From Thermodesulfobacteriota bacterium (lineage in GTDB: Bacteria > Desulfobacterota > Desulfobacteria > Desulfobacterales > C00003060): a DNA stretch of 64,000 nt. Shown piece by piece: positions 43,345-58,539 of the stretch. The DNA lies in assembly GCA_034189385.1 (NCBI GenBank), contig JAXHVD010000005.1:32001-96000 (forward strand), written 5' to 3'. The stretch's first letter is position 1, and the number at the start of each line of letters is the position of its first letter. A program made the translations under genes and the position numbers. A model generated the notes under the pieces. The model did no database searches and was not told the DNA's origin. It saw only the letters and a list, made by a program, of their open reading frames with translations.

Positions 43345-44394
43345 CTATCTCAGAATACCTGCAAAACGATCAGCAATTTCCTTCATGTTTTTTAGATAAT
43401 CTCTGGCCAACGGATCAATATGCACCACCTTGCCTCCAATGGCACGGGCCACGGTTTCAGCACTGGTTTTGCTGAACTGCTTCTGCACGAATATGATGCC
43501 GATGCCCTCTTCCTTCGCCTCTTCAATGATACGAATGAGATCTTTGGCCGTTGGCTCCTTGCCTTCGATTTCGATGGGAATTTGCTCCAGCCCGTAGTCA
43601 CGGGCAAAGTACCCCCATGCTGGATGAAAAACCATGAATTTACCGGTCTTTGCCTTTTTCAGGGACTGTGCGATTTTCCTGTCTAGCTCGTCAAGATCGC
43701 GCTCAAGGGCTTTGAGATTCTCCAGGTAATAAGTCCTGTGAGCAGGATCTTCCGCTGCCAGGGCTTCAAAGACGGTCTGGGCCTGTATCTTGACCAGTCT
43801 AAGACTTAACCAGATATGGGGGTCTTTCAGGCCTTCGCCGCGATGACGGTGGGCAGACCCACGTTCTCCATGGCCGTTGTGTCGGTGGTGTTCATCCTGG
43901 TCCTTTTCTTGATGACGACCTTGGAGCCCATGTCTTTCTTCATGATGATGGGCTTTCATGGGCAGAAGCTCGATGCCGTGACGGGTGTCAACAACCTTCA
44001 TGTTCGGGTTGATCTTGCTTATCCGTTCCATCCAGACTTTTTCAAAATCCACGCCAATGCGAAAGTAAAGCTTGGCCTGGCTGAGCTCGTACATCTGTTT
44101 TGGCCCGGGTTCGTACGTGTGAGGGCTGTGACCGGGCCCAACCATGACCGAGACGTCTACAAGGTCTCCGCCCACGCGGTCTAAGAAATAGGCTTGGGGG
44201 AGAATGCTGACGAAAACCTTCATCTCCGGTTCTAGAGGACCCGATATTTCCGCAGACGATTGGGATCCAATTGGAAGGAGCAATCCGGCGAACACCAGGA
44301 TAAGGCCAACGATGCACACAGAATGCCTTCTCCTTGTTTCTCGTTGCCTCCCTGCCAAGGATATCCGTTTCATGTGTGTCACTTGTCTTTGCAT
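43345..44394 (-). CDS. znuA: Zinc/manganese ABC transporter substrate-binding protein
   Basis: SPHTYEP, His-rich loop, DPHIWLS, VFHPAWGYF, EGKEP, IDPL; start uncertain. Confidence 0.9.
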   Translation of the reverse strand: MQRQVTHMKRISLAGRQRETRRRHSVCIVGLILVFAGLLLPIGSQSSAEISGPLEPEMKVFVSILPQAYFLDRVGGDLVDVSVMVGPGHSPHTYEPGPKQMYELSQAKLYFRIGVDFEKVWMERISKINPNMKVVDTRHGIELLPMKAHHHEERHGLQGRHQEKDQDEHHRHNGHGERGSAHRHRGEGLKDPHIWLSLRLVKIQAQTVFEALAAEDPAHRTYYLENLKALERDLDELDRKIAQSLKKAKTGKFMVFHPAWGYFARDYGLEQIPIEIEGKEPTAKDLIRIIEEAKEEGIGIIFVQKQFSKTSAETVARAIGGKVVHIDPLARDYLKNMKEIADRFAGILR

Positions 44395-44463
44395 GGGAAT
44401 AAGGTGTGGAAAGGGGCCATTGGCCCCAGATGGAAGCCCCGTAGTGTTGTCAAAGTGGCTGGT

Positions 44464-46653
44464 TCATGCCAATCCAATGATCTTGCCGCCTTGATAGATC
44501 AAAAAGGCAACGACCCAGGCCAGAACGGTGCTGTAACCGATGCTGAAGAAGGTCCACTTCCAGGAATTCGTTTCCCGTCTGATGACTGCCACAGTGGCGA
44601 GGCAGGGGACATAGATGAGCACAAAGGCCATCATGGCATAGGCGGAAAGGGCCGTCATCCCAGATTTCTTAAGGGCTCCTTTCAAGGCCTCATTTCTCTC
44701 GGTCCCATCAGCCCCGACGGCATAGAGAACGCCCATGGTGCTTACCACAATCTCCTTGGCAACAAAACCGGAGATGACTGCCACACTGCCACGCCAGTCC
44801 ATGCCAATAGGAGCAAAGATCGGGGCCAAGGCTTTTCCTAGATAGCCCATGTAGGATTTTTCCACCTTCTCTCTGGCCTTCTGCGCTTCCACGGCGGAGA
44901 TGGCTTTATCCCGTTGCCGCATGAGTGCTTCACCGCTATTCCCCTGCAATTGGAGGATCTGAGTCTCATACTTGGCATGGACGGTTGCTATCTCCGATTC
45001 GTAGTCCCTTGAGTACTCAATGTCCTGTGGAAAGGCACTCAAGAACCACACAACAACCGACCCGATTAGGATCACGCCTCCCATTTTCTTTAGAAAAATC
45101 TTGCTGCGATCCCACATATGGATAAGCAGTCCTTTAAACATGGGGGCCCGATACGGTGGAAGTTCCATGACAAAGGGAGCCACTTTACCTCTGAGTACGG
45201 TGGATCGAAACAGACGCCCCACAAGAATCGCCAGCACGATGCCCAAGGCGTAGATGGAAAAAATAGCGTTGCCGGCCTTGACTCCAAAAAAAGTACCGGC
45301 CAGAAGGATATACACGGGTAATCTAGCAGAACACGACATCAGGGGATTGATTAGAATCGTCAATATACGATCCTTTTCGCTTTCCAAGGTCCTGGTGGCC
45401 ATGATGGCTGGGGCATTGCAGCCGAAACCCATGAGCAAGGGGATGAAGGACTTGCCATGGAGCCCGATGAGGTGCATGACCTTGTCCATTAAGAAGGCAG
45501 CCCGAGCCATATAGCCGGTATCCTCAAACAGGGCAATGCAGAAGAAAAGGATCAGGATGTTCGGCAAGAATATGATGACACTTCCCACGCCGGCAATGAT
45601 GCCGTCTACGATCAGATCGTGCAGGAGGCCCTGTGGCAGACGCCCTCCGATGGCTCCGCCCAGCCAGCCCACGCCTGAATCTATCCAGCCCATGGGATAG
45701 GTCCCCAGTGAGAAGGTGATCTGGAACATGGCCCAAATGAAGAAGACAAAGATAGGAAGCCCCAGCAGTCGGTTGGTCAAGATCTGGTCTACTTGCCGGG
45801 AAATGTCTATACGTCTTCCCGATACTGTCTTTAAGGCCTCTTTCACAATACCGGCGATAAAACCGTACCGGTGGTCTGTCATGACAATCTCGGGTTCCTC
45901 ATCAAAGAATTGGCGGAGCCTCTCCCGTTTCTGCTCCGCCTCACAGAGGATAGCCTCTCCTTCTGGGCTGGCCGCCTGAAGGGTCCTTTCTTGAACGATC
46001 TTGTCCTTTTCAAGGAGCTTCACGGCAATCCAGCGAACACTGTGAGGAAGCCTTTTACCCATTTTGTCCTTTATGAATGTGGACAATTCCCCAATGGTCT
46101 TTTCAATGTCTTTGCCGTAATAAACACGGCGGGTGCGAGGAAGCTCTATATCCGTTTCTGCCACGGCGATGATGGCCTTGAGGAGTTGATCTGTGCCTTC
46201 GTTCTTGTTGCCGACCGTGAACACCACCGGCACGTCAAGCAGTTCAGACAGCTTCTCGCCGTCGATCTTGATACCGCGCTGGCGGGCCACATCGGCCATG
46301 TTCAGGACATAGATGACCTTCGTGTCAAGTTCCCGAAGCTGTGTGGCCAGGTAGAGATTGCGCTCCAAGTTCGAGGCGTCAATGATATCAACGACTACGT
46401 CAGGTTTTTCATCCAGGATGAAATCGCGAGCCACGATTTCTTCGATAGAATAGGCGGTAAGGCTGTATGTGCCAGGGAGATCGACAATGGTGAGTTCATA
46501 CCCGTTGGTGCTAAGATGGCCTTCTTTTTTTTCTACAGTGACGCCAGGCCAGTTTCCTACCTTCTGGCGGGTACCTGTGAGATTATTAAATATCGTGCTC
46601 TTGCCCGAGTTGGGATTGCCGGCAAGGGCTACTGTAATGGAGTGGGGGGCCAT
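44464..46653 (-). CDS. feoB: Ferrous iron transport protein B
   Basis: GNPNSGKST, VGNWPGVTVE, DLPGTYSL, GFGCNAPA, MSCSARLP, YVPC. Confidence 0.98.
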   Translation of the reverse strand: MAPHSITVALAGNPNSGKSTIFNNLTGTRQKVGNWPGVTVEKKEGHLSTNGYELTIVDLPGTYSLTAYSIEEIVARDFILDEKPDVVVDIIDASNLERNLYLATQLRELDTKVIYVLNMADVARQRGIKIDGEKLSELLDVPVVFTVGNKNEGTDQLLKAIIAVAETDIELPRTRRVYYGKDIEKTIGELSTFIKDKMGKRLPHSVRWIAVKLLEKDKIVQERTLQAASPEGEAILCEAEQKRERLRQFFDEEPEIVMTDHRYGFIAGIVKEALKTVSGRRIDISRQVDQILTNRLLGLPIFVFFIWAMFQITFSLGTYPMGWIDSGVGWLGGAIGGRLPQGLLHDLIVDGIIAGVGSVIIFLPNILILFFCIALFEDTGYMARAAFLMDKVMHLIGLHGKSFIPLLMGFGCNAPAIMATRTLESEKDRILTILINPLMSCSARLPVYILLAGTFFGVKAGNAIFSIYALGIVLAILVGRLFRSTVLRGKVAPFVMELPPYRAPMFKGLLIHMWDRSKIFLKKMGGVILIGSVVVWFLSAFPQDIEYSRDYESEIATVHAKYETQILQLQGNSGEALMRQRDKAISAVEAQKAREKVEKSYMGYLGKALAPIFAPIGMDWRGSVAVISGFVAKEIVVSTMGVLYAVGADGTERNEALKGALKKSGMTALSAYAMMAFVLIYVPCLATVAVIRRETNSWKWTFFSIGYSTVLAWVVAFLIYQGGKIIGLA

Positions 46654-46656
46654 CTG

Positions 46657-46896
46657 TTATGTTGCTCCAAGCCTTACGTTTTCGACTTGAACCCAGGCGG
46701 CTTCATCCACGCGAAGAGACACATGGTAGCCTTTCAGGATGAGTTCAATAGGGTCTTTCAAGGGGGCGTATTTTTCAACATACACCTCTGTGCCGCGCAA
46801 AAACCCCATCTCAAGGAGTCGCCTACGAAAAGAACCTTTACCCGACACCCGAACGACTGTGGCTACCTGACCTTCCTGCAGTTCACTCAGGTTCAC
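46657..46896 (-). CDS. feoA: Ferrous iron transport protein A
   Basis: RRRLLEMGF, APLKDPI, SLRVDEA. Confidence 0.96.
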   Translation of the reverse strand: MNLSELQEGQVATVVRVSGKGSFRRRLLEMGFLRGTEVYVEKYAPLKDPIELILKGYHVSLRVDEAAWVQVENVRLGAT

Positions 46897-47588
46897 GGCA
46901 AGTCCCTTCGGTCTCCATTTGGTTTGACCATGATCTTTCTGGCAATCCCTCGGCCCAAGGCCAACCTCGTGGCATTTACTGCCACCACCACTTGTCCCTC
47001 ACCCCTGTTGGTGATGACTTCCACTTCATCTCCGCTTCGCAGCCCCATGGTAGCCAAGCGCAGTTGTGCGCCAGCACCTCCCATGAACTCTTCTATGATG
47101 CCCCGCTCCCCTTCTTGGGCATACGATAGCGGCATCAATTGGACGCGTTCTTTCACACAGTCTGCGCAAAGCCCGTAGATCTCCATCTTGTGCTGGAGCA
47201 TGTGAAAGCCATGGGTAGCCGCTATTTCCACTTGCAGGTGTTCCATCTGCTGATTTTTGAACTCAACAATCTTCCGGCACTTCGTACATATGAGGTGATC
47301 GTGGTGTAACCCAAGGTGACGATGCTCGTAACGGGTGGGCTGACCTTCGAATTTTTCCTTTGAGGCAAACCCATACCGGCACATCAGGTTGAGTGTCTTC
47401 TTTACGAAGTCAGGCTCAAAATGAAGGCCTTTTCTTTCTAACAGGTCCATGAGATCTTTGAAGCTTACATGTGCCTCTTGTCCAAGAAAGACGCCGAGGA
47501 TGGCCATTCGATCCTGAATTTGGTCTATTCCTTCCCTTTCAAAAAGACGTTTGAATTGTCGCTTTTCCTGCTGATGAATCGGGTCCAT
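46893..47588 (-). CDS. Fur-family regulator fused to a FeoA domain
   Basis: YEH...HHDHLICTKC...YGLCADC, then MPLS...RLATMGL...RLALGRGIARKIMV. Confidence 0.9.
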   Translation of the reverse strand: MDPIHQQEKRQFKRLFEREGIDQIQDRMAILGVFLGQEAHVSFKDLMDLLERKGLHFEPDFVKKTLNLMCRYGFASKEKFEGQPTRYEHRHLGLHHDHLICTKCRKIVEFKNQQMEHLQVEIAATHGFHMLQHKMEIYGLCADCVKERVQLMPLSYAQEGERGIIEEFMGGAGAQLRLATMGLRSGDEVEVITNRGEGQVVVAVNATRLALGRGIARKIMVKPNGDRRDLP

Positions 47589-47601
47589 AAAACAGGCCCC
47601 C

Positions 47602-47622
47602 TATTGCAACTAAATTTCAATA
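47602..47622. promoter_or_regulatory. Candidate Fur box upstream of the feo operon
   Basis: Imperfect palindrome TATTGCAACTAAATTTCAATA about 14 bp upstream of the start codon. Confidence 0.65.
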
Positions 47623-47692
47623 AAGTTAATGCACGACAGCGAGCTTGTCAATCCCTGCTTCGGGGCGTGCTGGTGACTTGACGTATGGTTGC

Positions 47693-47941
47693 CTAACTTT
47701 TGGAATAACCGGGGAACTCTATCGAGGTGCAGGTCCCGGAGGCACATTGCCTGGATTCGACCGTTGGGCGTCGTGCTTCGCCTCCACTCGGGCCTACTGA
47801 ATAGGTGGTGGTGCTCATGACACGTTCAAAGTCAGAGGATTGACAGTGGGGACACCTCATGTCAAACCCGTCCTCTTCTTTGACCTTGAGGAGCTCGAAG
47901 ACCTGGTTACACTTCAAACAGCGGAATTCATATATGGGCAT
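47693..47941 (-). CDS. FmdB-family zinc-ribbon protein
   Basis: RBS AAAGGAG; MPIYEFRCLKC...CPHC. Confidence 0.88.
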   Translation of the reverse strand: MPIYEFRCLKCNQVFELLKVKEEDGFDMRCPHCQSSDFERVMSTTTYSVGPSGGEARRPTVESRQCASGTCTSIEFPGYSKS

Positions 47942-48225
47942 GATTATTCTCCTTTCTATATCATGAGTATAACAAAACCCAAAGATGGAGGCAATCATTA
48001 AATCTCCCACCGCGGAGACTGATGGGTTGTCCATGATCCCAGCTCGGCGGGAGAGCCTTCCCCTTGACCACCCAATAGGATTATCCTATTTTCTTATAAA
48101 AGGCTTAAGAAAAGCTTGCGCTCAGAAGTGGCAGTGAACCTCTTTGGCGGACGGTGATGAAAAGAGGCCCATGGCTGAAGTGGTCCACACTAGAACTTAT
48201 GAACATTACGACAAAATAATAGGAT

Positions 48226-49508: not shown

Positions 49509-50912
49509 TCATTGTGGTGGGCATGGCATGGAGTTGTTCACAGGCGAAGGGATCCTACTTGCAGGAACCATAACCTTGGCATTCGCCCTTTGTTCCCAGT
49601 CAGTGACATCTTCTTTCTGGAGAAAAAGCGCAGTGTTGCCGTGACAATTGTTGCAGTTTTTGTTTTGTGGCGTCACCCGTTGAAGCGTGTGAGGTGTGTC
49701 CAGTTTCCAGGTAGGAAGTCTGTCAAAATCGCTTAGCCCGTCCTTTACATAGAAATCAAAGAGGCCCGGATGTGCAGGGGCATGACGCAACACTACATAG
49801 TTATAGGGCCTGTCTTCACTCTTGCCAGGATTGATGCCTATCTTAAAGAGCATCGTGGTTTCCCTAGATTGGTAGTAGGGAAGGCCTTGTTTGTCTGTTC
49901 CAACGTGGCACTGGAAGCAGTTTTTGTAGGGCCTGCCGTGGCAGACTTGGCATGCCACCTTGTCCCTGTGAATCCTGTGTGACGCTGTGCTAGGGTTTTC
50001 CGATACAGCGTCCCAGTGGCAGTTTTCGCATCGGGGCCTCTCGGGCAGATCAAGTCGACTGGAAACCCCCATGGCATCAGCATGCATCTCCATGCCGGTG
50101 TGGCAGTCCATACACGTCATGTTCACTTTGGCATAATGGACGTCTGCTGGATACCCCTCGTTTCCCCCAGTATACTCCTTATAAGTGCGGCCGCTGTGGC
50201 AGCCCGCACAGCCAGAGTCCATTGGTGGGCTCTTCTGAAAAACATGTCCGGCCAGGAACCCCCCCTCCGCGTAATCTGGACGGCTGACATGACACTGCCC
50301 GCAGCTTGCGTGACAGACACTGCAGTGCTTATCTCTGGCCGACCAGACTTTGTCCATGATTCCCTGGTCCTTCTTGTTGGTCCGGGCCCTGATCGTCCTG
50401 CTGAAGGGAGCCAGCGTGTAGTGAAGGCTATTCTTGGCTGTGGACGTGATACCCTGGTGACATGCTCCGCAAGCCTTGTCGGCATCGGGAAAGGTGGGAT
50501 CTCTCACAAGCCCCTCGTGGGCGGCCTGCCAATTGGATGCCAGTGGGTTGCCTTGATGGCATGTCTGGCAAGGTATTTTCCCATGGCGGGTCTTGAGGAA
50601 TGACCGGTCAACATAGGTCCTCTCGTGCGGCTCGGACCAAGCCACAGGCTCGGCTCAACATTCGCCAGTGGATTCTGGTGACGGGCCAGGCTTTGGCCTT
50701 ACCTTTTCCATCTCCCTGGCCAAGGTGACTTGCCTTTCGGCATTGGTGTGGCAACTGACGCATTCACTCTGCGCCAAGTCCTGGTTAGCCACAGAACGCG
50801 GTGACACGCCACACGCCGGCAGGGCAAAAGATAAGACTAGAAGTCCAATGGAGATAAAAAATGCTCCCAGCCTATTTGTCCTGTTCCATTTCAGAGAGTC
50901 TATCTCGAGCAT
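49509..50912 (-). CDS. Multiheme cytochrome c lipoprotein (11 CxxCH), probable selenoprotein read through TGA 50655-50657
   Basis: Upstream ORF (lipobox LPAC, one CxxCH) and downstream ORF (10 CxxCH, no signal peptide) are in frame across a single TGA followed by a SECIS-like hairpin; start uncertain (50912 or 50921). Confidence 0.8.
50621..50654 (-). promoter_or_regulatory. Putative bacterial SECIS element
   Basis: After UGA: GCCGAGCC-UGUGGCUUG-GUC-CGAGCCGCA, a 9-bp stem with two G-U pairs and apical GGUC about 17-20 nt downstream of UGA. Confidence 0.7.
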
Positions 50913-51093
50913 TTCTCGCATATTCGCTGTCGGGGTAATTAGCCACAATTTCCTGGTACAACTTCTTGGCGTGCTCTTCGTTGTGTTGCAACTCTTCCAG
51001 CCGTGCGGTATCAAAAAGCTCTTCAGCCTTATTGCCCGTGCAGCCAGAAAGGGCTAGGGCAGCCCAAAGAAAGAGGAAAGAATATCGTTTCAT
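50872..51093 (-). CDS. Small TPR-like lipoprotein
   Basis: RBS AGGAGG; lipobox LSGC; AKKLYQEIVANYPDSEYA TPR-like helix pair. Confidence 0.85.
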   Translation of the reverse strand: MKRYSFLFLWAALALSGCTGNKAEELFDTARLEELQHNEEHAKKLYQEIVANYPDSEYARNARDRLSEMEQDK

Positions 51094-53044: not shown

Positions 53045-54292
53045 TTAATGGTCACACACGTTTTCTCCGGTAACCAATGCGTTTGAGAGATATTGCTGTA
53101 CCAGTTCCTCAGGTACAAGATTAGGCGCCCCTGTCATCACCTTAATGTCGTTTTCTCCAAAAAGGCTGAGGGCCCTCTGTCCCATGCCTCCCGCAATAAT
53201 CACGCTCACACCCTGTTCGTGGAGCCACTTGGGCAGCACGCCCGGCTCATGGGGTGGGGGGGTCAACATCTCTTTCTTCGTTATTTCCTGGTTTTCCACA
53301 TGAACAATGGCAAAATCTGCCGCATGGCCAAAATGGGCCGTGAGTTTACCTTCAGCGACAGGGATTGCGATTTTCATAACGCCATCCTCCTTCTTTCCTT
53401 TTTCCGTCTGTGATGTCTTGGGAGCAGGTTTAGAAGCAACGGCTCCTGTCTGGTTGTTTTCTATTATTCTTTCAACCACTTCATTGAACGCTTGCGTTGT
53501 CTCAGAGTCCGGATATTTTCCCATGTACGATTCCCCTGCATCACCGCACTGTACCAGCTTGGGATCAAAGGGGATCCGACCCAAAAAGGGCACATTCATG
53601 GCCAGAGCCGTTTTAAAACCGCCACCTGTTCCGAAGAGCTCCACCGATTGGCCACAATGGGGGCACAAGAATCCGCTCATATTTTCTATTAGTCCCAGGA
53701 TGGGCATCTTAACGGTCCTGCAAAAACTGATCGATTTCCTGATGTCGGCCAGAGAAATCTCCTGGGGAGTGGTGACGATAATGGCCTTGGCACCAGGGAT
53801 GGTTTGAGCGATAGAGAGCGGTTCATCCCCTGTGCCAGGCGGCGAGTCGATAATGAGATAATCGAGTCTTTCCCAATGCACGTCAGAGATGAATTGCCGG
53901 ATAACATGCATCTTCAAGGGACCCCTCCAGATCACGGCTTCGTCCTGATCTTGGGCAAGGGACTCAATGGAGACTACTTTGAGATTGTCGGAGTATGCCT
54001 TTGGTACCATTCGGTTATCGGCGCTGATGCCAAGAAGGCCCTTGAGCCCCAGCATTCTCGGTATGTCAGGGCCATGGAGATCAACGTCCATGAGCCCTAC
54101 CTTGGCCCCCTTTTTTGACAGAGCCACAGCCAGGTTGGCAGAGACACTGCTTTTGCCCACACCACCTTTTCCGCTCATGACCAGAAACTTATGCTTGATA
54201 AGACTGAGCGATTCTTGGATGGCCAGGTCTTGTGGGTCCGTCCCTCCACCCTGCTTGGATGGCCCTTGGCCAGATTTCTTAACTTCACTCAT
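53045..54292 (-). CDS. mrp: Mrp/NBP35 (ApbC) Fe-S carrier ATPase fused to a NifB/NifX-like domain
   Basis: GKGGVGKS, IWRGP, DSPPGTGDE, ENMS, CPHC; C-terminal MKIAIP...HFGHA...GGMG...NVCDH. Confidence 0.93.
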   Translation of the reverse strand: MSEVKKSGQGPSKQGGGTDPQDLAIQESLSLIKHKFLVMSGKGGVGKSSVSANLAVALSKKGAKVGLMDVDLHGPDIPRMLGLKGLLGISADNRMVPKAYSDNLKVVSIESLAQDQDEAVIWRGPLKMHVIRQFISDVHWERLDYLIIDSPPGTGDEPLSIAQTIPGAKAIIVTTPQEISLADIRKSISFCRTVKMPILGLIENMSGFLCPHCGQSVELFGTGGGFKTALAMNVPFLGRIPFDPKLVQCGDAGESYMGKYPDSETTQAFNEVVERIIENNQTGAVASKPAPKTSQTEKGKKEDGVMKIAIPVAEGKLTAHFGHAADFAIVHVENQEITKKEMLTPPPHEPGVLPKWLHEQGVSVIIAGGMGQRALSLFGENDIKVMTGAPNLVPEELVQQYLSNALVTGENVCDH

Positions 54293-54405
54293 CGAGAAAC
54301 CTCCTGTATTTGCTATTTTAGAATGTGGATGCCCAGTGTAGCAGGAACTATAAGCATTCAAACCCTTGGTGGCAACCCCTAACCCTTCACACCTGGGCCT
54401 ACTGA

Positions 54406-54768
54406 CTAGACCCAGTGCCCTTCTACATTGGGCCCGTCCACCTGCTCTAACCGGCCGTTTTTGTACTGCATGACGGCATCTATCACGCGTCCTTTGGCAC
54501 CCGTCACCACCTTGATGTCTGCAGCATTCAAGACATCAAAGGCCTTGGGCCCGCAATTGCCGGAGATCAATACACTCACCTTGTTATCTACAATAGTTTT
54601 GGCCGCTTGGATGCCCGCCCCTTGCGGCAAATTCAGATTTTGTACATTCTCCACGGCTTCATATTCCAGTGTCTTGGGGTTTACGACAACAAAATATGTG
54701 GCCCTCCCAAAACGGGGATCCATTTCGGAAATAAGCTCGTTCCCAGTAGAACTGACAGCAATTCTCAT
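54406..54768 (-). CDS. NifB/NifX-family protein (Orange protein-like)
   Basis: DPRFGRA, GAGIQAA, GNCGPKAF, VEGHW. Confidence 0.9.
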   Translation of the reverse strand: MRIAVSSTGNELISEMDPRFGRATYFVVVNPKTLEYEAVENVQNLNLPQGAGIQAAKTIVDNKVSVLISGNCGPKAFDVLNAADIKVVTGAKGRVIDAVMQYKNGRLEQVDGPNVEGHWV

Positions 54769-54793
54769 TCTTGGTTCTGCCTCCTCTTTTTCA

Positions 54794-55084
54794 CTAATTC
54801 CCGGCTTGTTTTAGCACCTCCATAAGCTGATCAGCCCTGTTGTATCCTGCCACCTTGATCTCCACCTCCTCAACGCCCTCTGTTTTTTCCACAGCCTTCT
54901 GAATGTTGTGGGCCAGTTCAAAGGCCATGGGACAGACTGGAGACGAGGGGTGAAAGGTAAAGCTGACTTTGCCGTGCTGGTCGACAGAGAGTCCTCTGAC
55001 CAGTCTCATGCGCATGATGTCAAGTTTGGTGCCTGGGTCAATCACTTCTCTTAAAGTATCTTCAACTTTTTTCTTTAGTGTCAT
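54794..55084 (-). CDS. DUF59 / Fe-S assembly protein
   Basis: LREVIDP...LDI...SPVCP. Confidence 0.85.
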   Translation of the reverse strand: MTLKKKVEDTLREVIDPGTKLDIMRMRLVRGLSVDQHGKVSFTFHPSSPVCPMAFELAHNIQKAVEKTEGVEEVEIKVAGYNRADQLMEVLKQAGN

Positions 55085-56016
55085 CGGTAATCCCTGAGTT
55101 GATAGTAGACCTCAGCGTCCTTGTTGACCACCTTGATCTTATCGTCCTTAACCAACAGGTCCATGTATTTTATGACCTCGTTCTTATGCACAGCCAACCC
55201 AGAAGAGATGTCATCCAAGGTGCACGGCCGTCTTGCAAGGAGGTTCAACAAGTCTTGTTCAATGTTGGTCTTGGGTTCGTGCTTGTGGCCGTCTTCAAAT
55301 GGTGCAATCACTTCTGCCTTCTCGCCTAGAATCTTGCAGAACCTCGCCATCTCCTCTTGGGAAACCTTCTGCGCATGAGGTTCTGCTGAAGGGCGGACAG
55401 CGGTGTTCACGTGTACCTTCTGCGGATCCACCCTTTCGATCCATTGCCTAAAGCGTGTGGCGTCGGTTTCCGTGGCATTTACATTTTTGAGGATGAAGAC
55501 CTCAAGCCATATCTCCCCGCTGTATACCTTCCGGAAGTCAACGAGTCCATCGACCATGGCCCTAAAGCTGATCTCGGGATGGGGGCGATTGATTACCTCA
55601 AACCCCCTTTGGTCATATGCGTCTAAAGACGGCAGCACGACGTCAGCCTCCATGATAGATTCTTGAACCCTGCCGTCTCCCAAAAGGGAACCGTTGGTTA
55701 ACACCGCTACCGGAATGTCAGTGTGTTTCTTAATGTCATGAATCAGTGGGCCGATATCACTATTCAATGTGGGTTCCCCAGATCCTGCCAGGGAGATGTA
55801 GTCTGCGTCCAGACCCTCTTCCATGGTTTCATAGAACTGATCCAGGATCTTTCTTACCGGTATATAAGGCTTTCTTTCAATGGTCTTGGTCTTGGTTCGC
55901 CCAAGTTGGCAATAGATACAGTCATAGGAACAGACCTTATATGGAACCAGATCAAGGCCTAAAGAGCGTCCCAACCTCCGTGAGGGCACAGGCCCGTAAA
56001 GAAAGCGTTGCTTCAT
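55081..56016 (-). CDS. Radical SAM protein
   Basis: YGPVPSRRLGRSLG, CSYDCIYC, GSGEPTL, LTNGS. Confidence 0.92.
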   Translation of the reverse strand: MKQRFLYGPVPSRRLGRSLGLDLVPYKVCSYDCIYCQLGRTKTKTIERKPYIPVRKILDQFYETMEEGLDADYISLAGSGEPTLNSDIGPLIHDIKKHTDIPVAVLTNGSLLGDGRVQESIMEADVVLPSLDAYDQRGFEVINRPHPEISFRAMVDGLVDFRKVYSGEIWLEVFILKNVNATETDATRFRQWIERVDPQKVHVNTAVRPSAEPHAQKVSQEEMARFCKILGEKAEVIAPFEDGHKHEPKTNIEQDLLNLLARRPCTLDDISSGLAVHKNEVIKYMDLLVKDDKIKVVNKDAEVYYQLRDYR

Positions 56017-56879
56017 TGTCTTCCCAGGCAGTCATCAACCCGATGCCAGATATCTTTTATGGCCTCAGACACCTTGCCCTTTGAGAACTCGACAACACTC
56101 TGTCCAGCCACCATGGCACGGGTGACCTCGGTGTCGTAGGGGATATGCCCCACCAATTCAATGCCGTTCTTTCCACAATAATCTGCAACCCGCGCAGACA
56201 TCTCCTCATTGAGGTCGAATTTGTTGATACAGGCCAGGGTAGGTATCTTGAAGTGGGCAGCCAGCCCGCCAACCCGTTCAAGGTCGTGAAGTCCTGACAG
56301 GGTGGGTTCGGTCACTATAAGGACCAAACTTGTGCCGGTTATGGAGGCAATGACGGGACATCCAATCCCCGGGGGGCCGTCCACAATAACGGTATCTAGC
56401 CCCCTGTCCTCGGCTAGGACTTTGGCCTGATTTCTAACGAGGCTTACCAGCAACCCAGAGTTCTCCTCTGCGATACCCAGGCGGGCATGGACCATGGGGC
56501 CAAACCTGCTTTCAGAGACGTACCACTTACCGCAAACACTCTGGGGAAAGTCAATGGCCTCCACTGGGCAGAAATGGACACACACCCCGCATCCCTCGCA
56601 ATCGATCTTATTGACTACAAACTCTGGACTAATGGCATTGAACTGACATCGATTCAGGCACTCCCCGCATTCCGTGCACCTATCAGGGTCAATGACGGCG
56701 ATTCGCCCCCCCTTGAAATCTTCCTCATGCCTGATCTCCGGGGCAAGAATCAAGTGAAGATCGGCCGCGTCCACATCGGCATCGGCCATGACCTTTTCTT
56801 TAGCAAGGGCCGCGAAAGAGGCTACCACACTGGTCTTACCAGTGCCGCCTTTGCCACTTATGATCGTTATTTCTTTCAT
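56013..56879 (-). CDS. MinD-superfamily P-loop ATPase with inserted 2x[4Fe-4S] ferredoxin
   Basis: SGKGGTGKT, DADVDA, CTECGEC, CEGCGVC, DGPPGIGCP, TEPT. Confidence 0.93.
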   Translation of the reverse strand: MKEITIISGKGGTGKTSVVASFAALAKEKVMADADVDAADLHLILAPEIRHEEDFKGGRIAVIDPDRCTECGECLNRCQFNAISPEFVVNKIDCEGCGVCVHFCPVEAIDFPQSVCGKWYVSESRFGPMVHARLGIAEENSGLLVSLVRNQAKVLAEDRGLDTVIVDGPPGIGCPVIASITGTSLVLIVTEPTLSGLHDLERVGGLAAHFKIPTLACINKFDLNEEMSARVADYCGKNGIELVGHIPYDTEVTRAMVAGQSVVEFSKGKVSEAIKDIWHRVDDCLGRQ

Positions 56880-57712
56880 GCAGTCAGTTCCCCTATTTTC
56901 TCATAAACCGCTCGAAACTGATCCTTCATCTCAGGCCTGACGTCTATCATCATGATGCCACGGGAATAGGCCTCAGCGATCTTTCGGTCATTTGGGATCT
57001 CCATCAAGATGGGGATTCCCTCTTTTTTAGCATATGCCACAACGCGATCGTCTCCTACGTCAGATCGGTTGATAACGATCCCGAGGGGGATTTCCAGAAT
57101 CCTTACAGCCCCCACGGCCAACTTGAGGTCATGTAGTCCAAAGGGAGTGGGTTCGGTCACCAAGAGGGCGAAGTCCGAGCCTTTGAGTGTGACAATGACG
57201 GGGCACGATGTCCCTGGTGGCGCATCGATAATGGTCGTCTTTTTCGGATCAATGTATTCCTTAACCTCTTCAATGAGAGGGGGAGACATGGCCTCGCCAA
57301 TCCGTAAACGGCCATGGATGAATTCAACGGAGCCGCAGTGGCCCTTTTCCAGGACCCCAAGTTCACGGGGCTTCTCTCCTATGGCCTCTCTCGGACAGAC
57401 CATCATGCACCCTTTACAGCTGTGACAAAGCTCCGGGAAAGTCAGCACCTTCTTGCCAATGACGGCAATGGCACTAAACTGACAGATCTCTCCGCACATT
57501 CCGCAGTAATCGCACTTTTCCAAATCAACTTCCGGCACCGGTGTCGTCACCGTCCCCGTATAGTCGATGTCAGGTTTGGTAAAGATGTGGGCGTTTGGTT
57601 CTTCCACATCACAGTCCAAGAGCTGAACCCCTCCATCCAATGAAAAAGCCAGGTTGGTAGCGATAGTCGTCTTCCCCGTGCCCCCTTTGCCGCTGGCAAT
57701 AGAAATAATCAT
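56876..57712 (-). CDS. MinD-superfamily P-loop ATPase with inserted 2x[4Fe-4S] ferredoxin
   Basis: SGKGGTGKTT, DCDVEEPN, CDYCGMC, CHSCKGC, DAPPGTSCP, TEPTPFG. Confidence 0.93.
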   Translation of the reverse strand: MIISIASGKGGTGKTTIATNLAFSLDGGVQLLDCDVEEPNAHIFTKPDIDYTGTVTTPVPEVDLEKCDYCGMCGEICQFSAIAVIGKKVLTFPELCHSCKGCMMVCPREAIGEKPRELGVLEKGHCGSVEFIHGRLRIGEAMSPPLIEEVKEYIDPKKTTIIDAPPGTSCPVIVTLKGSDFALLVTEPTPFGLHDLKLAVGAVRILEIPLGIVINRSDVGDDRVVAYAKKEGIPILMEIPNDRKIAEAYSRGIMMIDVRPEMKDQFRAVYEKIGELTA

Positions 57713-57797
57713 GCCTCTCAGATTCTCCTCAATCTATAATGATGGCCCGTTGCCGTCAGTGTATGGGTGTCGCCGGCATGGCCTGCCCCTCATTTGG

Positions 57798-58019
57798 CTA
57801 CCCTCGTGTCATGGCCGCCCCACACTTGGGGCATTTTTCTTCAAAGCAGGGCGTTCCCTGTCGGTGGGGAACCCTTTGGCCACAACTGGGGCAAACACAG
57901 TCTCCACCGGGACCTCTGCCAGAACCCGCACCCTGACCTGAGCCTCCGCCGCCTTGCCCCATGCGCCTTCCTGTGCCGGGGCCTTCGCCCCTCGGGCCAG
58001 TTCCGTCTCCTCGTGGCAT
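57798..58019 (-). CDS. Small Gly-rich protein with Cys cluster (DUF5320-like)
   Basis: RBS AGGAGG; MPRGDGTGP, CVCPSCG, CPKCG. Confidence 0.85.
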   Translation of the reverse strand: MPRGDGTGPRGEGPGTGRRMGQGGGGSGQGAGSGRGPGGDCVCPSCGQRVPHRQGTPCFEEKCPKCGAAMTRG

Positions 58020-58050
58020 TGTCATCTCCTCCTAATTTCAGTTCTAACCT

Positions 58051-58115
58051 TGATGGTTTCGAAAAAAGTCTTTTTCAAATCATTGAGTCCGCGGGGGCGG
58101 ATGAGAAAAGCACTT
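58051..58115 (+). repeat. Partial (left-end) copy of the inverted-repeat element family
   Basis: TGATGGTTTCGAAAAAAGTC then CATTGAGTCCGC...GGCGG, matching 60721 onward. Confidence 0.7.
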
Positions 58116-58539
58116 ACTCCTGGGCCCGTATTCGGTGGAGTTCTTCGCATCCACAGGAAGGGCATTTCTGGGGCCGGCCCGTGCCACGAGGTTCTTTCCA
58201 CTGACTTTTGCAGTGGTCGCAAAGGAAAAGCCGATTTTCTGCCGGGTCTACCCTTTTGTAATTTCCCCCTTCTACATTGATAGCCTTTCCGTAAATGAGT
58301 GCTCCTGCAATGGTTTTGCGCGCCTGTTCGACAATGCGCCCAAATGTGGCTCTTGATACCCCCATCTGCTTGCCTGCTTCTTCATGAGACAACCCCAGAA
58401 GATCAGCGAGCCTTAGCGCCTCAAGCTCATCCACGGTGAGTTGGACCTGTTCCAAGTCGATCATGGGAACTCCCCGCGGTTTGAAGTAGTTTATCTGCGG
58501 GTCAATATTTACAAGTCGGTCTTTTTGCGGACGTACCAT
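58114..58539 (-). CDS. DUF134-family DNA-binding protein with C-terminal zinc ribbon
   Basis: YFKPRG, ELEALRLAD, MGVSRATF, EGG, CDHC, CPSCG. Confidence 0.92.
   Translation of the reverse strand: MVRPQKDRLVNIDPQINYFKPRGVPMIDLEQVQLTVDELEALRLADLLGLSHEEAGKQMGVSRATFGRIVEQARKTIAGALIYGKAINVEGGNYKRVDPAENRLFLCDHCKSQWKEPRGTGRPQKCPSCGCEELHRIRAQE

Follow-up and report, generated by a model that had tools for sequence, protein, structure and literature searches.

The window, which is the whole stretch of 64,000 nucleotides that was analysed, contains on its minus strand at 49509..50921 a gene for an 11-heme c-type cytochrome, in which an in-frame TGA (50657-50655) is, judged from sequence comparisons, very likely read through as selenocysteine (Sec86). 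The exported product may well be a periplasmic sulfane sulfur reductase that acts on polysulfide or protein persulfide, possibly with the neighbouring Cys85 as the resolving thiol; this complete assignment was given an even chance.

Gene layout and export signal

Read through the TGA, the minus-strand frame 50912-49509 encodes 467 amino acids and ends at a TGA stop (49511-49509), while the alternative start ATG 50921 yields a product of 470 amino acids. Locus L088 retains just the first ATG, and that stretch overlaps the upstream ORF. The frame contains exactly one in-frame TGA (residue U86, in the context PESTGEC-U-AEPVAWSEP) and 11 CxxCH motifs, of which the first precedes the TGA and the other ten follow it. 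As the earlier note had proposed, the two ORFs that were called separately form one frame across this single TGA, joining a part with a signal and one heme to a part with ten hemes. The ten-heme part was also correctly described as having no export signal, since the downstream ORF begins without a hydrophobic leader.

The export signal covers residues 1-41 (50790..50912) and contains either a signal-peptidase-I site after A41 or the lipobox LPAC (C34). The earlier description of the upstream part as a one-heme lipoprotein was correct for the heme and the export signal, but the lipoprotein assignment is doubtful, because LPAC has Pro at position -2 and the end of the segment, SP-x-S-V-A, resembles a competing signal-peptidase-I site. 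C34 was present in all seven loci of the clade with Cys before Sec (C-U), as LPAC or LLAC, and the closest relatives with Gly before Sec (G-U) have no Cys there. A profile search of the cytochrome gave no match to LPAM_1, and the Pfam matches of the protein were to cytochrome families only.

The 5' end of the cytochrome gene is overlapped by 40-50 bases by a gene for a lipoprotein of 73 aa that contains a pair of TPR helices like those of BamD/CpoB (window 50872-51093, minus strand). The TPR lipoprotein gene stands without the cytochrome in other members of the genus (L148, L151), which suggests that the cytochrome gene was inserted behind it.

Conservation of the TGA codon and selenocysteine machinery

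The gene was found in 44 of 401 genomes of the phylum, with 46 matches, of which 45 contained one TGA and the remaining one starts at a contig edge. The TGA column was identical in all 40 larger regions, down to 31% identity, and in all 30 loci of an order-wide search, five of which repeat earlier genomes, the source genome included. Among the best 120 protein records 119 begin after the TGA codon, so the family is truncated in the databases. TGT-TGA was identical in six metagenome loci of 80-98% identity. A sequencing error can be dismissed as an explanation of the codon: besides these loci, bridging contigs of runs X1, X2 and X4, of which X1 may be the source sample, had the TGA unchanged.

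In 51 full-length homologues (52 candidates minus one fragment) column 86 was occupied by Cys in 14, Tyr in 5, Trp in 4 and other residues in 17, including His in 2 and Met in 1, and 11 had a gap. The four Trp records may represent TGG, or TGA under another code. The genome contains tRNA-Sec (selC) together with selA, selB and selD, and its selD carries an in-frame TGA of its own. Co-occurrence of selA was uninformative, since selA was nearly as common in non-carriers (56 of 62) as in carriers of the gene (48 of 52). Loci L124 and L125 have selA on the strand of the family gene, about 2-3 kb upstream of it. The proposal of Sec insertion, made in the earlier note from the two adjoining ORFs and a hairpin, was strongly supported: homologues have TGA or Cys at this column, the machinery is encoded in the genome, the hairpin covaries and the gene is under purifying selection.

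SECIS hairpin

The SECIS hairpin extends from +9 to +29 after the UGA (50626..50646, minus strand), with a stem of 8-9 bp from +9/+10 to +28/+29 and a GUC loop at 50637-50635. An apical GGUC loop had been described at this place; GGUC is indeed present at +17 to +20, but the family alignment gives a G18-U19-C20 triloop closed by a G17-C21 pair. The folding energy relative to shuffled sequences was unremarkable (z -1.24). Of the 7,778 TGA-ended frames of at least 80 aa in the genome, only 4 are followed by an 8-bp stem that has G18 in the register seen here, and 47 by such a stem in any register.

Across 55 distinct sequences, with eight shifted-register loci omitted, the stem positions paired in 91% of cases, compared with at most 46% in slid controls, and two-sided changes were present in seven of the eight stem pairs. 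Covariation of the stem was 0.40 versus at most 0.15 in the slid controls. In the GEC-U clade the pair C17-G21 became G17-C21, at the cost of a change from PL to WS in the protein; the linker over the stem reads APLEP or EPLAP in variants and AWSEP here. As these stem changes alter the protein, selection on the RNA is indicated. The consensus bSECIS, as given in PMC13188914, has a loop of 3-9 nt with G first, a stem of 4-16 bp, a spacing of 16-37 nt and an MFE of -7.5 or lower. Compared by hand, the hairpin agreed with every one of these terms (3 nt loop, G18, 8-9 bp, 17 nt, -12.3 to -15.3 kcal/mol). The hairpin of the formate dehydrogenase gene of the same genome has an identical GUC loop.

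Cys85 and the C-U clade

The vicinal Cys-Sec pair emphasised in the earlier note is present in the source protein, where the Cys85 codon TGT (50658..50660) precedes the conserved TGA (50655..50657) within a Gly-rich linker, but it does not define the family, as Gly stands before Sec in 62 of 68 distinct Sec contexts and the family motif is G-x-G-U-G/A. Cys precedes Sec in the other six contexts, all from one clade that consists of the source gene, L072-L076 and L088 (80-98% identity). This GEC-U clade had full support in a quick tree, was nested among G-U sequences, and its members share the neighbourhood of the source gene. The C85-U86 redox pair therefore appears, from the sequences compared, to be a late, lineage-specific addition with a function that we infer. 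A private mutation at Cys85 was ruled out by the six metagenome loci with TGT-TGA.

Within the clade dN/dS was 0.13-0.18 for four partners (dS 0.39-0.57; L088 was excluded from the codon comparison, its alignment being out of register), indicating purifying selection, and the Cys85 codon was replaced by the synonymous TGC in one divergent contig. P0003 and P0004 are deeper members of the AWSEP clade with 72-75% identity, and one of them reads AWCEP. A further GEC-U sequence, L143, groups with the G-U sisters. The best tree gave two origins of C-U; in AU tests on groups that were named only after a tree had been seen, a single origin of C-U was not rejected (p 0.117), and a single origin of GEC-U and GEC-C was rejected (p 0.008).

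Additional Cys residues were found elsewhere in the family. The 14 Cys-type homologues included three with CC, two of these as GECCGG, and two with CxxC, compared with a Cys frequency of 0.3% elsewhere in the linker. Position 349, predicted to lie beside C85, is Ser in the source protein (49866..49868) and Cys in 69 of 116 rows of the closer alignment A3, and six of the Cys349 loci are G-U. A second thiol thus appears to recur as GECC, CxxC or Cys349. A second thiol is dispensable, as the majority of Sec-type members have Cys at neither position 85 nor position 349.

A working role for Cys85 was rated slightly below an even chance. The alternative, that Cys85 is a tolerated neutral change in a selenoenzyme that functions like the G-U members, is unlikely, but has several points in its favour: a single transversion from GGT, the codon of several sisters, is sufficient, the long stem of the clade carries further changes (G88E, P92W, G240S), its members share about 85% of their residues anyway, and G-U dominates the family. 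These points are weighed against the displacement of a near-invariant Gly by a Cys that was kept in seven of seven clade loci at dS up to 0.56, the synonymous TGC variant, and the recurrence of an additional Cys at the same spot in unrelated branches.

Fold and predicted interface

All structural models represent the protein without hemes and without U86. The AlphaFold2 model had a pLDDT of 78.8. Residues 107-460 (49533..50594), which contain hemes 2-11, form a core like that of octaheme tetrathionate reductase (OTR; SO4144, PDB 1sp3, TIGR04315) and matched 1sp3 with Z 8.2 and an rmsd of 4.8 over 273 aligned residues; the next match had Z 3.8. A sequence profile also matched OTR (E 3.7e-7). 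Foldseek gave E 2.7e-3 against OTR and no match below E 0.001, and a single-sequence search of the PDB gave no match. A Z near 8 is modest; it was trusted because no other match comes close and the sequence profile points to the same fold.

The alignment with 1sp3 does not include the N-terminal piece. When residues 45-85 were folded with residues 87-458, ipSAE was 0.64, compared with 0.00 for the best of three controls; the ipSAE mark is reached by 116 of 157 solved pairs and 2 of 215 mismatched pairs, but halves of one chain tend to pass it, and the model was used mainly for geometry. Interface runs agreed in at least 72% of contacts, with a partner pLDDT of at least 64. The invariant heme 1 motif CVSCH (residues 51-55, 50748..50762) was placed against the core by a contact of H55 with the invariant H223 (50244..50246), at a predicted error of 1.5 A. 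From this contact heme 1 is predicted to be bis-His coordinated and the downstream half to need the upstream half. Ligation of heme 1 by Sec is disfavoured by the same contact.

Cys85 was in the predicted interface. The core residues of the interface beyond the heme-1 patch were Arg242 (50187..50189), Lys330, Cys332, Ser349, Thr352 and Pro379, with Cys332 belonging to the heme 10 motif CFQCH (residues 332-336, 49905..49919), which is predicted to be nearest to the Cys-Sec tip. With contacts assigned by elimination from residue lists and not from listed pairs, Cys85 is predicted to lie near Arg242, heme 10 and residue 349. Arg242, the predicted anion binder of the active site, was conserved in all 36 Sec-type homologues, in 11 of the 14 of Cys type and in 10 of the 37 others, the last group being more divergent and related sequences not being independent. 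That Arg242 tracks Sec or Cys at column 86 agrees independently with the predicted site.

Heme ligands

In the broad set nine free His were invariant for 11 hemes. Two more were conserved only in the close set, in which H196 and H377 were 91-97% conserved. These counts leave zero to two hemes without a His partner; as the close set retains as many as 11 free His, each heme may have one, and an open heme site is no more than a possibility.

Two readings in which the Cys-Sec pair binds iron were considered. The first, which seems improbable, is a stand-alone polysulfide reductase of tetrathionate-reductase fold, in which a mobile arm holds Cys-Sec at the added heme, one of the two residues ligates the iron and the other attacks sulfur, the second thiol having evolved several times (Cys85, Cys349, CC, CxxC). 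If true, this would be a natural His/Sec-ligated c-heme; we know of no natural Sec-ligated heme. The second, for which we see little chance, is that Sec86 (or Cys85) is an axial ligand, probably of heme 10, and that catalysis or redox tuning takes place at a His/Sec heme and not at a free selenolate. The predicted interface includes residues of heme 10, and column 86 has Tyr, His and Met in eight of the 51 homologues, above a linker background of about 1% each; however, Tyr, Trp and Arg can also arise from TGA or TGY by a change of one or two bases, and the homologues with neither Sec nor Cys mostly have no Arg242 either, which fits loss of a catalytic site. The nine invariant free His would leave room for such a ligand, but H196 and H377 could fill the His count.

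Gene neighbourhood and genome context

In 35 of 40 regions the cytochrome adjoins, or is fused to, an exported rhodanese that has an active-site Cys; of the other five regions, one has just 328 bases downstream. A rhodanese was adjacent or fused in 29 of 30 order-level loci, the exception being the source locus. The cytochrome is fused to tandem rhodanese domains in L134, L108, L184-L187 and P0146. Constant pairing with rhodanese was rejected as a rule, as it fails in the C-U clade, where no rhodanese was found near the gene (window, L072, L075), and in several sisters. The G-U sisters L006, L008, L130 and L131 also have no rhodanese neighbour and keep G-U, so the Cys is not a necessary consequence of losing the partner. 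In the rhodanese-less G-U sisters L006, L007, L008, L079 and L130 the cytochrome gene is instead next to genes for a radical SAM/SPASM protein and a PF03601 membrane protein.

No match to PF00581 was found in three of five sister genomes, which are 67-96% complete. Four genes with a rhodanese domain were found in the source genome (90% complete). None is of the partner types, and two have a CAU motif, namely L060 (G000:C1:36071-36517) and L061 (C23:169565-169843) with the motifs LYCAU and FYCAU. The L060 rhodanese, which has a signal peptide, is a candidate for an unlinked partner.

The 13-heme forms L013, L015, L087, L091 and L093 have a C-terminal membrane helix and are followed by cytochrome b561, which was counted toward a role in sulfur metabolism. 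Cytochrome c maturation genes are near L087 and L093. As only 26 of 55 carriers were found to have dsrA, the family is not one of sulfate reducers as such. The dsrA of the source genome (G000:C45:102002-103270) lies 6 kb past the end of the window and about 19 kb from the cytochrome gene. The flanks of the gene contain a Fur-FeoA fusion, FeoB, ZnuA and a zinc-ribbon gene (window 43345-48034) and DUF134, two MinD-type 4Fe-4S ATPases, radical SAM, DUF59, NifB/NifX and Mrp-NifX genes (window 53045-58539); both look like an ordinary metal-cluster region.

Comparison with known systems

MccSep (ExtKL, GSU2937-2936, NCBIfam NF040886) is the polysulfide reductase of Geobacter sulfurreducens, in which, according to PMC13510729, Sec, Cys, Arg, Lys and a heme act on polysulfide. 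Like the 11-heme protein it is a periplasmic multiheme c cytochrome of Desulfobacterota with an annotation split by an in-frame UGA, and its Sec lies close to a heme, together with Arg/Lys and a Cys, as is predicted for the 11-heme protein. In contrast, MccSep has five hemes, among them a catalytic heme with His/Cys ligation, and its Sec comes after all of them in a C-terminal Ig-like domain, whereas Sec follows heme 1 in the 11-heme protein. No homology between the two was found beyond CxxCH words, and NF040886 did not match the 11-heme protein at E 0.1, but instead found a gene on C28. This is a separate true MccSep/ExtKL of the source genome (G000:C28:7739-9025, L155) with an in-frame TGA, divergent from the 12-heme cytochrome L003. 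The genome thus encodes two unrelated multiheme selenoproteins.

OTR was the best structural and profile match, and the order of the core hemes aligns. The 11-heme protein exceeds OTR by three hemes and by a heme-Sec module at its N-terminus, and with 25.5 bits against a cut-off of 375 it is not a member of TIGR04315. A 2026 catalogue contains one GenBank-annotated Sec-containing OTR, WP_331457571.1 (PMC13188914). The heme-II ligand of OTR is Lys56, according to PMC3769277; no Lys more than 50% conserved was found between residues 138 and 226 as its counterpart. The predicted site of the 11-heme protein is at heme 10, whereas the OTR heme-II position corresponds to heme 4.

Mammalian thioredoxin reductase has a C-terminal Gly-Cys-Sec-Gly with vicinal Cys-Sec and receives electrons from FAD/NADPH. 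By analogy, the pair in the 11-heme protein, which is likewise vicinal and on a flexible segment, could be a selenenylsulfide-capable two-electron shuttle. Here it would stand in an internal E-C-U-A linker with heme electrons and no flavin domain, and the Cys is optional in the family. Thioredoxin reductase is also cited as an analogy in PMC13510729. Adjacent Cys-Sec occurs in HgcA, SaoL, SaoC, MbdU and KCU-star, none of which is listed as a multiheme cytochrome (PMC13188914 Table 1), and the 11-heme protein had no match to the CU-motif families in NCBIfam.

Proposed mechanism

The earlier note had suggested sulfur or selenium chemistry, and its sulfur part gained indirect support from the rhodanese partners, the tetrathionate-reductase fold and the MccSep precedent. 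S-S chemistry at the Sec site is somewhat probable, and the best reading, by analogy, is that the mechanism copies the chemistry of MccSep onto another fold. The N-terminal heme would pack onto the core via H55/H223. The flexible linker would bring its Cys-Sec tip to a pocket of Arg242, Lys330/Asn331, heme 10 and residue 349. An anionic S-S substrate would be held by Arg242 and attacked by the Sec86 selenolate, with release of HS- or a shortened polysulfide. The Se-S adduct would be resolved by a nearby thiol, which may be Cys85 here, Cys349 in many relatives, and a rhodanese Cys or none in others, and the site would be regenerated by two electrons from the heme chain. In most relatives sulfur would be delivered by the exported rhodanese; in the C-U clade, which has no rhodanese neighbour gene, free polysulfide or an unlinked partner may take its place.

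Binding or reduction of a metal or metalloid (selenite, Hg, As) by the C-U pair instead of sulfur is very improbable. CU motifs are known from HgcA, SaoL, MbdU and a CopZ-type protein (PMC13188914 Table 1), MccSep reduces selenite too, and the gene is near Fur/FeoAB, ZnuA and metal-cluster genes; but these neighbours are shared only within the C-U clade, the context of the family is that of a sulfurtransferase, and the G-U family has the same pocket residues. The reading of the TGA as a genuine stop, as a lesion in a pseudogene or as an error of assembly is close to refuted: the hairpin energy is not significant by itself and some homologue records have Trp or no linker at the column, but against this stand one TGA column down to 31% identity, the covarying hairpin, the Cys homologues, purifying selection, and a downstream part without export signal whose invariant H223 is predicted to need heme 1.

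Significance of the family

The family is absent from the 119 families in Table 1 of the 2026 review, in which the cytochrome or CXXCH entries are ExtKL, GSU2204 and the GenBank-annotated OTR (PMC13188914). NCBIfam 20.0 has no family model for it; the source protein was below every cut-off, and 36 aligned members gave weak multiheme matches only (best E 3.6e-14). The Atlas contained generic multiheme clusters only, the word 'cytochrome' is absent from the main text of the deep-Sep, BSepDB and SelCysML papers, and no description of the family was found in the literature searched, which did not extend to subscription papers.

MccSep (2026) is the only characterised multiheme selenoenzyme in the papers found, and the 11-heme family would be a second, unrelated scaffold. 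About one in ten of the genomes sampled from the phylum carries it, and nearly all of its protein records are truncated. As no dsrA was found in about half of the carriers, the gene may point to a pathway of sulfur respiration or sulfane handling that has been overlooked. With its naturally occurring G-U, C-U, G-U plus Cys349, G-C, C-C and CxxC forms, with and without rhodanese, the family would allow the contributions of Sec and of a resolving thiol at a heme site to be told apart.
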